Assembly (NCBI GenBank): GCA_950097225.1
Contig: CATNCE010000002.1
Location: 76,105 to 140,104 of the forward strand
Length of the DNA: 64,000 bases
Origin: an uncultured Bacilli bacterium
Lineage (GTDB): Bacteria; Bacillota_I; Bacilli_A; RF39; UBA660
Direction: 5' to 3'
Part shown: positions 1 to 50,250 of the stretch, piece after piece
Numbering within the stretch: the stretch's first letter is position 1
Layout: every line of letters begins with the position of its first letter
The notes under the pieces: model-generated
Told to the model about the DNA's origin: nothing
Databases searched by the model: none
What the model saw: only the letters and a program-made list of their open reading frames with translations
Program-made: the position numbers and the translations under genes

Positions 1-353
1 TATGTTATGTCTATATTTGAGTTGCTATTTACTTCATCACCTTCGTTAATGTGACAGTCAACTTCTATATTAGCATCATAATTTCGACTTGTATTAGATA
101 CCGTGTACTCTAATGTACTTTTATCCTCTAGACTACTTAACTCTTTTGTTTCAAAACTTATTGCTTTCTTATCTTCACTTATTAAACTATTTTTTCTTAT
201 GTTATCTAGTTTAACTTCTGTAAAAATTATTTCAAAATCATCATTTTCTCCAAATGCAATTGTCCCGTTTAATACCAGTGTCGTTGTTACTGAGGCAAAA
301 CCAATCACTAAAGCTAGCACCGATAAAATGACTGCTATTTTTCTATTTCTCAT
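1..353 (-). CDS. Partial CDS (N-terminal part; gene continues beyond the left window edge). Secreted protein paralogous to the N-terminus of the 61190..62881 FGE-domain protein.
   Basis: Reverse-strand translation from the ATG at complement 351-353 gives MRNRKIAVILSVLALVIGFASVTTTLVLNG...YDANIEVDCHINEG. This aligns with the N-terminus of 61190..62881 (MRKKSIMILSILLLVIGFASVATNLIINS...YDADVTINCSLN). An AAGAGG RBS lies 10 nt upstream. The ORF-track plus-strand ORF 103..447 overlaps it and is judged spurious. Confidence 0.6.
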   Translation of the reverse strand, partial: MRNRKIAVILSVLALVIGFASVTTTLVLNGTIAFGENDDFEIIFTEVKLDNIRKNSLISEDKKAISFETKELSSLEDKSTLEYTVSNTSRNYDANIEVDCHINEGDEVNSNSNIDIT

Positions 354-415
354 AATACATAAACCTCTTATTTTGTTTAAAACTAAACATACTTTCCTAT
401 TTTTATTTAATCATA

Positions 416-424
416 CCCCCCCCC
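416..424 (-). repeat. C9 (G9 on the coding strand) homopolymer in the promoter spacer upstream of the left-edge secreted-protein gene
   Basis: Nine consecutive C at 416-424 in a genome of about 28% GC. On the minus strand the tract sits between a -35-like TTGATT and a -10-like TATGAT, about 62 nt upstream of the ATG. Confidence 0.6.
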
Positions 425-632
425 GAAAAAATCAAGAGGCTTGTTGAAAAATGAGACAATTTGACACGCTTTGTAATGATAAACGTGATGTGCCTTTATG
501 GCTATTCTACAAAAAAAAGAAGCAGGTGAATCAATTTTCGATATATTATACTAACGACTAAAAAGTTTGAAAACATACAAAAAAGTTTTATGAATACCAT
601 AAAACTTTAGAAATATTTACTTGAATAATCTT

Positions 633-2084
633 TTATAGCTGATTAAGTTTTTTATATTTCATTCCTTGAATTTTATATTTAGCGTTATTTACAGAAGACA
701 TATTTGGATACATTACATAGTCTTTAGTGGAACCAAAGAAGATGTAGTCTTGTCCGCCTGAGCCAGTTACTGATTGAGTCTTAATCACCCAGTTTGGATT
801 TTCTAATAATTCTTGAACACTTGATGTAACTAATTCACGAGGAATGGTTGTTGAATAGAATCCACTTACAGCATTTAAGATATTTGGAAATTTAATTATC
901 ATAGCTGGAGTTTTCATCTTATTAAGGATGGCTTTCATGATTTGGGCACAATTCTTTTGACGTTGGTTATCTCCAGATTTAAAAGCTAGGCGTTCACGAG
1001 CAACTGTAAGAGTTTGAATGCCATTTAAATACTGACATCCTTTTTTAACATGAAGTTTTTCTCCAATGTTATCATTGTAGGAATTTAATACCATCGAGTG
1101 TGTTGTCGTGTATTCTTGATCAGAGCAATAAGTAATTCCTCCTACAGCATTAACTAATTCAACTAAACTGCGTGTATTTATTTGAATATAATAATCTATT
1201 TTTATTCCAAATAATTTAGCAACAGAGGCAATATTAGTTTCAATGCCACGAGCTCCCATATCGCTTAATTTGTCGCGCTTACCAACACGAGCATCAGTAA
1301 TATAATAATCACGAGGAATAGTCGTTAAAAGAATTTCTTGATTAGTCTTATTTATGGAAACTAGCATATTAAAATCCATAAATGTGTTAGTAAAATCATA
1401 CCCACCGATAAAGATATTATAATATTCGCCTGGAGTTAATTTTTGATATTCTTGTTGTTGATACTCATCAAGATCTTCTTCCCCAATTGCCGAATTATCT
1501 AAAACAATATCAACATCTACTTTGACAATTACATTGTAGCTATTTATGTCTCGTCCATTGTTTTCCTTAAGGAAAGTATAGGTAGCATTATCAAGAAGAA
1601 TAACATCATGTGTGAATACAGTATCAAGATCTAATTCCTCTTTAAAAAGCATTATATTCATTAAATTTAGTTTCTTTAGAATATCATCCTTTTTATAAAG
1701 GTCTTGATAGTAAGCAATGGTCTTAGTAGTTAGTTCGCTTTCTAAAATATTATTTTTACTGATGATATAAAATGAGGTTTGATAAGTCTCATCGGCATTG
1801 CCAAATCCCTCATTAAAGAACTTATTTGTAACTGGTCCATATAGGGTCGTTCCAACAGCTAGTAAATTGATGATGAAGAACATCAAGAAACTTATGAATT
1901 TCATGAATCCCCTTCTAAATGCTAAAAGACCTAGGGCACCAATAAAATTGATGCTAGCCAAAGTAATAATAAAATAATTAAAATATTTAGTTGGTAAAAT
2001 ATGAAGATTGCCAATAATTCTGGTTACAGCAACTGATAATAAAATCATTAAGATTATTACGATAAATTTTCTTGATTTTTTCAT
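633..2084 (-). CDS. LytR-CpsA-Psr (LCP) family cell-wall polymer ligase
   Basis: N-terminal TM helices. C-terminal LCP signature IPRDYYITDARVGKRDKLSDMGARGIETNIASVAKLFGIKIDYYIQINTRSLVELVNAVGGI. Confidence 0.7.
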   Translation of the reverse strand: MKKSRKFIVIILMILLSVAVTRIIGNLHILPTKYFNYFIITLASINFIGALGLLAFRRGFMKFISFLMFFIINLLAVGTTLYGPVTNKFFNEGFGNADETYQTSFYIISKNNILESELTTKTIAYYQDLYKKDDILKKLNLMNIMLFKEELDLDTVFTHDVILLDNATYTFLKENNGRDINSYNVIVKVDVDIVLDNSAIGEEDLDEYQQQEYQKLTPGEYYNIFIGGYDFTNTFMDFNMLVSINKTNQEILLTTIPRDYYITDARVGKRDKLSDMGARGIETNIASVAKLFGIKIDYYIQINTRSLVELVNAVGGITYCSDQEYTTTHSMVLNSYNDNIGEKLHVKKGCQYLNGIQTLTVARERLAFKSGDNQRQKNCAQIMKAILNKMKTPAMIIKFPNILNAVSGFYSTTIPRELVTSSVQELLENPNWVIKTQSVTGSGGQDYIFFGSTKDYVMYPNMSSVNNAKYKIQGMKYKKLNQL

Positions 2085-10531: not shown

Positions 10532-11681
10532 TATTAAACACTTCCTCGTATTTAGCAACTATTATTTCCCATGTGTAGGCATTAGTTACTCTCTTAGTTG
10601 ACTTTTTATCATATGAAGCTATTTCGGTTGCTTTGAGATTATCGCATTCATCAATTAATTTGGCTAAATTATAATTTGACTTATTCCAGTAAAGAGCGCT
10701 TTCTTCACCTACTTCTTTATTAAAGCCAACATTTAATAGAAGATTTAATTTTGTACTAGCAAGCGCCTCTATTAAGGAAGGGTTGGTCCCCCCCACTTCA
10801 TGGCCATGTAAGTATCCGTAGGCATTTTCTCTTATTTTCTTTATTAATTCTTTATCGTAAACTGTTCCAACAAATTTGATACGCTTATCAGTTATAAAAT
10901 TAGTTTTATTTAATAGATATTTATAGAATGGATTTTGTTCGTGATTAGTTATGATGACTAAATCATGTTTTGACTTAGAGCGCATAAATTCTTTAATCAT
11001 CGTTTCATAATTGTTTTCTGGGACAAATCTTCCAACAATCAAATAATATTGATGCGGGGTTACTTGTTTTTCTTTATACCATTTTTGGACGATTGTACTA
11101 TTATCAGTTAACTTGCTTTTCGTTAAATCAGCTCCATAAGCTATAAATGTGGTTTGAGGTTTATATTTACTGTAGCTTTTTTTGATGTAATTCTCGATAT
11201 TAATAGAATCACAAATCAATAAATCAGCGTGTTTTACCATTAGTCTTTCGGATACTTTCCAATACTTGCGAACAGGTTTACTCCACTTAGAACGAAGCCA
11301 TTCATGCCCATCGGGATTAACATATAATTTAGCACCTAATCTTTTTAGTTGTTTTTTATAGTGGCCAATGAACGGCCCAATTCGGCAAGCTAATATATAT
11401 ACTATGGCATCTTTAATGTTATTGGCTTTGATATATTTAATGCATTGTTTCAATGCAAAAACATCATAGTATATAGCACGCGCTGGCCCTATGTTAGGAG
11501 TTTTTATACTAAAACATCTTGCATCATTATAAGTAAGTTCACACTCTTTTTGATTCATACAAGCAACATGGTATTTTATATTTGCACTCTTTTTATTTTT
11601 GGTAAGTTGATCGACAAAAGTTTCATAGCCGCCATAATTAGAAGGAATCCCTTTTGAGCCAATAATAAAAACGTTTTTCAT
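10524..11681 (-). CDS. GT1 glycosyltransferase with DUF1972-type N-terminus (RgpA/WchF-like rhamnosyltransferase)
   Basis: N-terminus MKNVFIIGSKGIPSNYGGYETFVDQL is characteristic of DUF1972/GT4 rhamnosyltransferases that extend a lipid-linked primer. Confidence 0.65.
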   Translation of the reverse strand: MKNVFIIGSKGIPSNYGGYETFVDQLTKNKKSANIKYHVACMNQKECELTYNDARCFSIKTPNIGPARAIYYDVFALKQCIKYIKANNIKDAIVYILACRIGPFIGHYKKQLKRLGAKLYVNPDGHEWLRSKWSKPVRKYWKVSERLMVKHADLLICDSINIENYIKKSYSKYKPQTTFIAYGADLTKSKLTDNSTIVQKWYKEKQVTPHQYYLIVGRFVPENNYETMIKEFMRSKSKHDLVIITNHEQNPFYKYLLNKTNFITDKRIKFVGTVYDKELIKKIRENAYGYLHGHEVGGTNPSLIEALASTKLNLLLNVGFNKEVGEESALYWNKSNYNLAKLIDECDNLKATEIASYDKKSTKRVTNAYTWEIIVAKYEEVFNNE

Positions 11682-45812: not shown

Positions 45813-47222
45813 CTATTCTACCCCGTGTGTTCCTAATCTCAAACTAATCGCTTCAGCAGTTTCTTGAGTGTTTGTTTTTAAGTAAGCAAGACCACAGTTA
45901 TCTTGTATGATTTGACTTACTTCTTTTCCATAAAGATTATCTAATTGAGCAAATGATTGTAAAAAGAATTGAAATTGCATACCACGACTTCGTGCTACTG
46001 ACACAATAGTTTCAATATCGGAAAGTGGTGGTGTATTCGCGAATTCATCTAATAAAAAAACAAGATCATATGGTAGTCTCTTGTTTGGTTGTTCGTTACA
46101 TAGTAAAACTAAGGTTTTATATATTAAAGAAACAATTATTGATACTAAAGCATAATAAATTTTTGATTCATCAGGAATACAACAATATAGCACAGTTGTT
46201 TGTTTTCCTAATATATTAAAATCAAAATCAGAATTTGATGTGATATTTTCAACATTAATGTCATCAAACAAAGTCATTCGTTCATTAAATATTGATGTTA
46301 TACTTTTATATGTATTTTCACTTGTAGATATAATAGGAATCAATTTATCTTTACTTTTTAAACCATAAGGTTTAGATTCAACATATTTTCTTAGTTTTTT
46401 TAAATTTGTCTCAGTCATAGAACTATTTTGAAATTTTTTTTATTGATGATAAAGTAATTTGTTCTCTTTTTATTTTACCATCAGCATAATCTTCTAAGAA
46501 TAATGCAATAATCCCATATAATAAATCACTTGCACTATTATTCCAAAACGCTTCTTTAGCAGTTTTATCTTCCATAATCATAGTAGATAATGAACTTATT
46601 AATTGATTACATTCGGCCAAATGTTCAATAGACTTATTTAGATAATTCATTTTTTTAATCCCATCAGTTTCTTCTATACTTAATTTATCGTTTTCAGTAA
46701 ATAACTCATATTCTCTTATTATTGGTTCTAAAATATTTAAATGATTTGATAAACTAGGATTTCTAAAATCTAGCGTTAAAATAGTATAGCCATTATCTTT
46801 AAACATTTGACTTGTTGTAGAAAATATTTCTCCTTTTGGATCAGTTATAAAGACACTTTTTTTAATTTGAGCATTAGCTATAAAACTGCATTGAGGAATA
46901 ACTGCTGTTACTGATTTACCAGAGCCAGTTGAACCTAAGTAAATCCAATGAGGTGTTTCAATATCAAACCATACTTTTTTCTTATCTCTAGAAAAATAAA
47001 CTGGAAATCCACTTTTTTTTAATTATCTATTTTCTCTTTATGAAAAGTATCATTTATTTCATTTTTAGTAGCCCATCGTGCAGAACCATGCTCATTATTA
47101 TTTTTAATCTTTTGTCTTGATATAATAGGTTCAAGTAAGTATAAAAATGCAATAATTATAATTATGACAATTATAATTACTATATAAGCAGCATCCATCA
47201 CACTATCTTTCCATATCGTCAC
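45813..47222 (-). pseudogene. Fragmented type IV coupling protein (VirD4/TraG/TcpA-like) in at least 3 frames
   Basis: 47019..47222 carries the TM segment and GSARWA motif. 46423..47001 carries the Walker A LGSTGSGKS. 45813..46418 carries the C-terminal LLDEFAN...SRGMQFQFFLQSFAQL. Stops and frameshifts separate the pieces. Confidence 0.6.
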
Positions 47223-49467: not shown

Positions 49468-49941
49468 TTATATTATCTCCATTTCTTTTTTTATTTTATC
49501 TTTTACTCTAGTAAGCCGCGATTTGACAGCACTTTCTGATAATTTCATAATTTTAGCAATTTCTTTTGCATTGTATCCTTCATAATAATGTAAATAAAAA
49601 GGTATTCGATATTTTTTATCTATTTTAGATAATGCTTGTATCAAATCTTCTTTTTCTAAATTTTGCTTATTTGAAATAATAACATCAAAATTTTCACAAT
49701 TTGTCTTTTTCTTCTTCCAAAAAGATTTTAATAAATCTTTTGACTGATTACTTGCAACTTTAAATAGCCACTTTTTTGTGTATTCCTCATCTTGTTTTAG
49801 TTTATTTATGTTTTTGTATAATTTTATAAATGTTTGTTGCATAATATCCTCTGCATCTTGAAAATTAAGTGTATAACCATAAGCAAGTCTATAAACATCA
49901 TTGTGATATTTTTTAAATAATTCTATAAATAAATCATCCAT
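49468..49941 (-). CDS. ECF-type sigma-70 family RNA polymerase sigma factor
   Basis: Region 2 (VYRLAYGYTLNFQDAEDIMQQTFIKL) and region 4 (YEGYNAKEIAKIMKLSESAVKSRLTRVKDKI). Confidence 0.8.
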   Translation of the reverse strand: MDDLFIELFKKYHNDVYRLAYGYTLNFQDAEDIMQQTFIKLYKNINKLKQDEEYTKKWLFKVASNQSKDLLKSFWKKKKTNCENFDVIISNKQNLEKEDLIQALSKIDKKYRIPFYLHYYEGYNAKEIAKIMKLSESAVKSRLTRVKDKIKKEMEII

Positions 49942-50250
49942 AATTCATCCCCTCTAAAAGAATGTAAAAAATAGATTGTGTTGGTATATTTTTTACTTCA
50001 TTTTTTTAACTTCTATCTGTTTCTACTATAATAACGATTCAAATAAATAAAAAGATGCAAAAAAGGATGTAAATTCATCCTTTTTTATTTATCCTTGAAA
50101 ATGTACACCTTGCATATTATCGTAGTATGAAGCATAAGTACTATTATCAAATTTAACAACTCCGCAATTGATAATTTACTCTTCCACAATTAAATCATTA
50201 TGATTATAAAAGAGTTCATTTCCTTCGTAATAACTAAGTAATTAAATTTT

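Follow-up and report, generated by a model that had tools for sequence, protein, structure and literature searches.

A tract of nine G residues on the coding strand (C9 on the + strand, positions 416..424) lies upstream of a surface-protein gene in the 64,000-nt stretch of DNA from an uncultured Bacilli bacterium analyzed here (referred to throughout as the window). The tract is a genuine simple-sequence run, improbable by chance. Together with its flanking promoter-like hexamers, the surface-protein gene and a locus that varies between strains, it appears, from sequence and by analogy, to form the setting of a classical simple-sequence contingency switch. The reading that we tentatively favor, and regard as a serious possibility still short of probable, is that a contingency-type tract sets the spacer of a gene-proximal promoter (P2), with read-through from an upstream promoter (P1) making the effect graded. 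For this reading we infer that P2 is used, that the tract changes in length and that expression follows the length; an on/off switch driven by slippage, as proposed in a previous sequence-only reading of this DNA, is plausible.

The G9 tract and the putative gene-proximal promoter

In a survey of homopolymeric runs, the C9 at 416-424 was the longest G/C run of the window, which has a GC content of 28.9%, and the only one longer than seven; the next longest was a single C7. Each added base cut the counts of C and G runs about six-fold across the window, and C9 or G9 appeared in 0 of 100 dinucleotide-preserving shuffles of the window. At nine residues, and atypical for its genome, the run has the length of about 8 or more that is looked for in contingency loci, making it a candidate hypermutable tract. 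The C7 run (G7 on the coding strand, window 10788-10794) is located inside a DUF1972/GT4 glycosyltransferase gene, where it encodes part of a VGGT motif. This G7 was considered as a second switch and rejected, being invariant and encoding a conserved glycine-rich motif.

On the coding (-) strand, the G9 tract is flanked by a -35-like hexamer, TTGATT (430..435), which matches TTGACA at 4/6 positions and is a consensus match only, and by a -10-like hexamer, TATGAT (410..415; 5/6 consensus match), which abuts the tract. The putative P2 spacer, TTTTC followed by G9 (429-416), is 14 bp long. A ribosome-binding site, AAGAGG (364..369, - strand), which is conserved in a sister strain described below, is found 10 nt before the ATG at 353; approximately 40 nt separate it from TATGAT, and the leader from P2 to the ATG would be about 50 nt. 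When the window was scanned for a 9-nt segment that has a -10-like hexamer directly at one end and, beyond its other end, a -35 of the TTG type at a distance of at most 8 nt, 0.54% of positions qualified. The 9-bp G:C run in low-GC DNA and the two hexamers with their 14-bp spacing thus read as had been claimed, and the associated arithmetic, by which G12 would give a 17-bp spacer, is correct.

Two short putative ORFs were noted in the region. A 36-aa ORF (MRQFDTLCNDKRDVPLWLFYKKKKQVNQFSIYYTND; 451-561, + strand), with an AAGAGG ribosome-binding site of its own, is divergent from the surface-protein gene and starts 27 nt from the tract. The sister strain has a 36-aa ORF at the equivalent place that is unrelated and on the other strand.

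We propose that the PARCEL/DUF285 gene, which varies between strains, was gained by horizontal insertion and carries G9:C9 as a simple-sequence tract in its regulatory DNA, where the length of the tract would set the distance between TTGATT and TATGAT. At G9, the 14-bp spacer would leave P2 off or weak, while slipped-strand gain to G11-G13 would bring the spacer to 16-18 bp and turn P2 on. Read-through from P1 across the tract would make the outcome a graded change in expression rather than strictly on or off. The good arrangement of the -10, leader, ribosome-binding site and ATG, the surface product and the strain-variable locus speak for such a switch. Speaking against it are the 14-bp spacer at G9, the conserved P1 upstream, the single tract length observed, the absence of the tract from the sister strain and from two other genes that share the N-terminal module of the product, and the pattern of contig ends. 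In its sequenced state, the spacer is two to four slippage steps short of the functional 16-18 bp; the sequenced state of a working porA or opc switch would reportedly be expected nearer to the functional spacer range than is the case here.

The PARCEL/DUF285 product and its N-terminal module

The gene downstream of the tract enters the window with its 5´ part only (codons 1-117; 1..353, - strand) and runs off the window start. A word-index protein search with the 117-aa N-terminus gave no matches, which reflects a limit of sensitivity, because the full protein and 676 relatives were recovered when HMMER was run exhaustively. The full-length product (P0248/P0398, 585 aa) is 100% identical over all 117 window residues, and the P0398 allele is located on a 170,686-nt NCBI contig. 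P0248 matches DUF285 (160 bits) and the PARCEL repeat-containing surface protein family (TIGR02167; 207 bits), while a match to the FGE-sulfatase family (PF03781), sought in the full product, was not found. The sequence-only reading had assigned the gene to an FGE-domain protein, and this assignment has to be given up: the family matches make the product a repeat-bearing surface protein that is either secreted or anchored in the membrane. The two scores, together with an N-terminal membrane helix, indicate a surface or host-interaction product of the kind that contingency loci encode. The N-terminus (MRNRKIAVILSVLALVIGFASVTTTL) contains no cysteine, the first cysteine of the product being residue 100, and the PARCEL product thus lacks the lipobox cysteine of a lipoprotein.

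The same reading had described the product as a paralog of the protein encoded at 61190-62881. The two are related over ~105 residues at the N-terminus (39% identity, E 5e-22), and the relationship fails for the remainder of the product. The 61190-62881 protein itself scores 21 bits for FGE-sulfatase, under the Pfam threshold of 23.3 bits. This N-terminal module (N-module) heads at least 676 protein clusters with differing, unrelated C-terminal domains (proteins P0248-P0397 among them); among the N-module proteins scanned, the C-termini are mostly DUF285/PARCEL, with one DUF6273 and one sub-threshold FGE-like domain. An AlphaFold model of the N-module begins with a helix (residues 2-20), after which come beta strands. 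Neither a search of this fold against the PDB (no significant match) nor comparison with the Pfam and NCBIfam families (no match) related it to anything described, and the module may act as an uncharacterised leader for sorting or display. TATGAT is also present upstream of the 61190-62881 gene, and an upstream G/C tract is absent from both of the other N-module genes with DNA examined (window 62882-63010; L005).

Several further features of these proteins were observed. The layout of the ~105-aa N-module comprises a basic stretch, the membrane helix, an invariant GFA motif and NG...DDFxVIFT...NTSRNYDA beta strands. The FGE-like paralog at 61190-62881 is one of a very large family (proteins P0001-P0120), for which at least 7,964 matches were counted; in related genomes, several FGE-like paralogs seem to share one contig, as their longest contigs have lengths in common, and some of them have a shorter, different N-terminus (proteins of 463-487 aa). 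A third PARCEL allele, P0399 (ENA, 591 aa), carries six extra N-terminal residues (MRGLCI), an extension that would require ATA to have become ATG within the region of the ribosome-binding site; the P0399 contigs are up to 8 kb long, are not k=31 assemblies and may extend across the tract.

A strain-variable locus, contig ends at the tract and other explanations

The upstream neighbour of the PARCEL gene is a LytR-CpsA-Psr (LCP) gene (633..2084, - strand; Pfam), which served as the anchor for locating the same locus in other samples. Given this gene and the L,D-transpeptidase genes next door, the organism, a gut bacterium that probably belongs to the Erysipelotrichales, is probably cell-walled. 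The LCP gene is followed by a terminator-like hairpin (582..608, - strand) with an 11-bp perfect stem and a T-rich tail (z = -2.1), and P1, TTTTCA-17-TATAAT (545..573, - strand; 10/12 matches), is placed immediately after it. P1 is the best match to the promoter consensus in the area and is located ~120 nt further upstream than the tract promoter. No terminator or significant fold was detected between P1 and the ATG (leader folding, z = -0.14), so the gene may be transcribed whatever the length of the tract. A search of window positions 1-800 for Rfam families returned nothing meaningful.

Comparison with related genomes pointed to an insertion. In a sister species (LCP 64% identical; mouse-gut MAG contigs), a glycosyltransferase/Alg14/Alg13 operon begins 83 nt after LCP, whereas in the window species that operon comes after the PARCEL gene (L018), with its terminator-promoter unit, TTAGTTTATAAT, retained. 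The adjacency of LCP and the operon in the sister species therefore suggests that the PARCEL gene and its 280-nt upstream region were inserted, and the locus context, strain-variable and with the PARCEL gene between LCP and the operon, is insertion-like as far as these sequences indicate. P1 resembles the operon promoter of both this species and the sister species, which looks like the outcome of a duplication of the terminator-promoter unit (window 354-633 versus L014 7465-7546 and L018 1819-1885).

The sister strain, represented by eight Logan and ENA contigs and with an LCP of 99% identity, keeps LCP, the terminator and P1 (98% identity). The segment of ~150 nt that holds the -35, the tract and the -10 (393..544, - strand) is strain-specific: the sister strain has a different ~190 nt, including its 36-aa ORF, at this place, and lacks the tract in the homologous region. 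Homology restarts at window position ~393 and covers the ribosome-binding site, the ATG and ~10 codons, after which an IS30-like element (396-aa HTH_38 transposase) cuts and destroys the PARCEL gene of the sister strain (L019 1900-4126, equivalent to the window from about 320 leftwards). Approximately 375 nt of one end of this element is present twice in tandem (L019). A search for related loci by protein yielded one distant locus, without a tract (L005), and none in metagenomes or viral contigs.

Other observations concern the samples and the wider window. One ENA contig (L020, 2x coverage), in which the LCP 3´ end is joined to high-GC foreign DNA at 1634-2076, was discarded as a chimera; P0247, a spurious LCP variant among the collected proteins, stems from it. 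Elsewhere in the window, the coding sequence of a TraG/VirD4-type coupling protein is broken into two short ORFs, near genes for a sigma factor of the ECF type and for an HTH regulator (45813-46806, 49468-50685), and this region looks like a decayed conjugative-element remnant.

The P1 data raise the possibility that the tract is passive. In this case P1 would drive the gene, G9 would belong to a mosaic 5´ untranslated region of ~185 nt acquired through recombination, and the length of the tract, even if unstable, would have little or no effect on expression. This explanation accounts well for the quality of P1 (10/12 matches with a 17-bp spacer, the best in the region), for its likeness to the glycosyltransferase-operon promoter of this species and the sister species, for the conservation of P1 (98%) but not of the tract segment in the sister strain, for the terminator-free leader without a significant fold (z = -0.14) and for a P2 spacer that, at 14 bp, is non-functional as sequenced. 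It does not account for the tract itself, since a G9 arising or persisting by chance is very unlikely at 29% GC, nor for hexamers placed as in known spacer switches (p ~0.005), nor for the recurrence of 5´ polyG tracts at surface-protein genes of related low-GC lineages. We consider a passive tract rather unlikely, though it is the alternative that fares best.

The behavior of assemblies at the tract bears on a further alternative. Among the sequences compared, the window itself is the sole one to bridge the tract, and no length variant was seen. A tract-spanning pattern with a variable gap had no matches in genome or metagenome contig collections, a negative that may be owed to assemblies breaking at the tract. 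Among Logan contigs (k=31; only contigs >150 bp reported), four LCP-side contigs in which LCP is identical or differs by one residue, from four runs and two accession series, all stop at 422, after CGGG, with the sequence ...TTGATTTTTTCGGG (in shorter form, ...TTTTTTCGGG); other LCP-side Logan contigs reach no further than 422. On the other side, the contig with the full PARCEL gene begins at 413, with TGATTAAAT..., in three samples. G7 runs in the coding sequence of the same contigs are identical in three strain variants and were assembled through.

Identical ends across samples indicate a branch in the assembly graph rather than random loss of coverage. Slippage by +/-1 would carry both contigs through the shortest common G run, so ends after G3 and before TA are not predicted from it. 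The breaks at 422 and 413 appear to fit a dispersed repeat of ~68 nt better than +/-1 slippage. The corresponding 68-nt stretch centred on the tract (384..451, - strand), delimited from the contig ends, is bridged by no reported k=31 contig, and we infer that those samples contain it in at least two contexts. The middle contig itself, at 68 nt, would be absent from Logan because it falls below the 150-bp reporting limit. The sister-strain contigs behave alike where they run into the IS-like repeat, stopping k-1 bases inside it (k=31, +481; SPAdes, +506 to +508). Simple bubbles, which arise from allelic differences, are normally popped by the assembler, and this speaks against allelic variation as the source of the breaks; a complex allelic difference confined to 421-414 is possible, though its bubble, too, would normally have been removed.

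On this evidence, the tract could be the centre of a repeat of at least 68 nt (451-384) that is found elsewhere in the genome, either as a portable promoter module of several surface-protein genes or as a recombination site. Variation would then come mainly from exchange, insertion or deletion of the cassette, and less from slippage. The strain specificity of the segment agrees with such a cassette. Against it, no second copy of the 68-nt stretch was found in the window, 10 kb of L018, viral contigs, or phage and plasmid collections, and the argument is drawn entirely from contig ends. Moreover, two ends no more than 3 nt from the tract would need repeat boundaries ~30 nt away on each side, a coincidence. 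We judge a dispersed cassette or recombination junction to be quite unlikely.

We also weighed whether the run, or its exact length, is an artefact of sequencing or assembly, for example of poly-G read tails. A single assembly bridges the tract, and the k=31 contigs confirm CGGG on one side and none of the run on the other. Yet the unique flanks are identical to independent contigs over 219 and 413 nt, and LCP, the complete PARCEL gene and the distant paralog are all on the same 170,686-nt NCBI contig. Poly-G read tails would presumably show up where contigs end, or would be far longer, rather than give an internal run of 9 nt within unique sequence. An artefact is therefore very improbable.

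Finally, an invertible promoter, in which an inverted repeat, AATTGTCTCATTT (461-449) / AAACGGGACAATT (270-258), would be flipped by a recombinase, was rejected as exceedingly improbable: the 13-nt repeat exists, is 85% complementary, encloses the promoter and tract along with the first 28 codons, and has a related motif (ATTGTCTA) that recurs beside the IS in the sister strain, but inversion would end the LCP-side contigs at ~449 and not at 422, no recombinase was found among the ORFs scanned with Pfam (locus neighbours and 45-57 kb), and 700 nt of AT-rich DNA should by chance contain an imperfect inverted repeat of this grade. The 258-270 / 449-461 repeat has an AATTGTC core, similar to the ATTGTCTA that occurs four times beside the sister-strain IS, and is probably due to chance or IS-related.

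Relation to known contingency loci and significance

The switch that we tentatively favor, with tract length setting the P2 spacer and P1 adding a graded background, would follow a principle known for decades in Neisseria, Haemophilus and Mycoplasma; the mechanism is not new. Reportedly, the polyA tracts of Mycoplasma hyorhinis vlp genes and the (TA)n repeats of H. influenzae hif are spacer repeats that lead to on/off or graded expression of surface structures. The locus described here shares with them a repeat within the -35/-10 spacer; the repeat unit and the organisms differ, and vlp and hif are experimentally proven.

In Neisseria, homopolymers between the -10 and -35 of porA, fetA and opc control the level of transcription (PMC2791445). 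Like these N. meningitidis genes, the surface-protein gene here is preceded by a run of G or C that separates a -35 from a -10 hexamer. For porA, opc and fetA, changes in spacer length by slippage and their consequence for transcription have been demonstrated; for the tract here they are proposed. The loci also differ in that the host here is of a Gram-positive, low-GC type, in that a second, tract-independent promoter is present upstream, and in that the on, intermediate and off states usual for the Neisseria genes have spacers closer to the optimum than the 14 bp sequenced here.

With respect to the gene family, there is a close likeness to the Mycoplasma capricolum/M. mycoides cluster. In M. 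capricolum, homopolymeric or dinucleotide tracts are found 5´ of PARCEL/DUF285 lipoprotein genes, which form modular contingency loci (PMC2996958). The two systems have in common the same repeat family (PARCEL = DUF285 = TIGR02167) with a 5´ simple-sequence tract, and a strain-variable, horizontally moving gene family in a low-GC host lineage that has the Erysipelotrichales among its relatives (PMC2996958). In contrast to the mycoplasma lipoproteins, the product here has no lipobox and carries instead a widely shared N-terminal helix-plus-beta module, and its host is probably cell-walled. The tract here is polyG, whereas the mycoplasma tracts are given as homopolymeric or dinucleotide without their composition (PMC2996958), and a shared 5´ cassette is, for the present locus, a possibility raised by the contig ends.

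In M. agalactiae, each of the spma genes has a polyG of up to 13 in its 5´ region, and the DUF285 (drp) loci are strain-variable and IS-rich (PMC2824730). The spma genes resemble the present locus in having G runs, in a very AT-rich genome, 5´ of surface-protein genes, with function not demonstrated. They belong to a different protein family, and every spma member has a tract, compared to a single gene among the three N-module genes examined at the DNA level here.

The locus flags a break point of metagenomic assemblies. We regard it as improbable that a portable promoter module of ~68 bp, with the tract at its core, is present at several places in the genome and drives different surface-protein genes, giving a mycoplasma-style system in a walled, uncultured gut commensal of the Erysipelotrichales. 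If this were true, the combination of contingency locus and PARCEL gene would have been inherited from a common ancestor with Mollicutes or exchanged with them.

Slippage switches in Gram-positive-type gut commensals are scarcely documented, and a literature search for such switches found nothing relevant for Erysipelotrichaceae. If the tract does switch the gene, it would represent slippage-driven surface variation in an uncultured commensal of this type and would link the PARCEL/DUF285 contingency genes of mycoplasmas to walled relatives. Expression of a surface antigen may then differ at the level of strains without a change in gene content.
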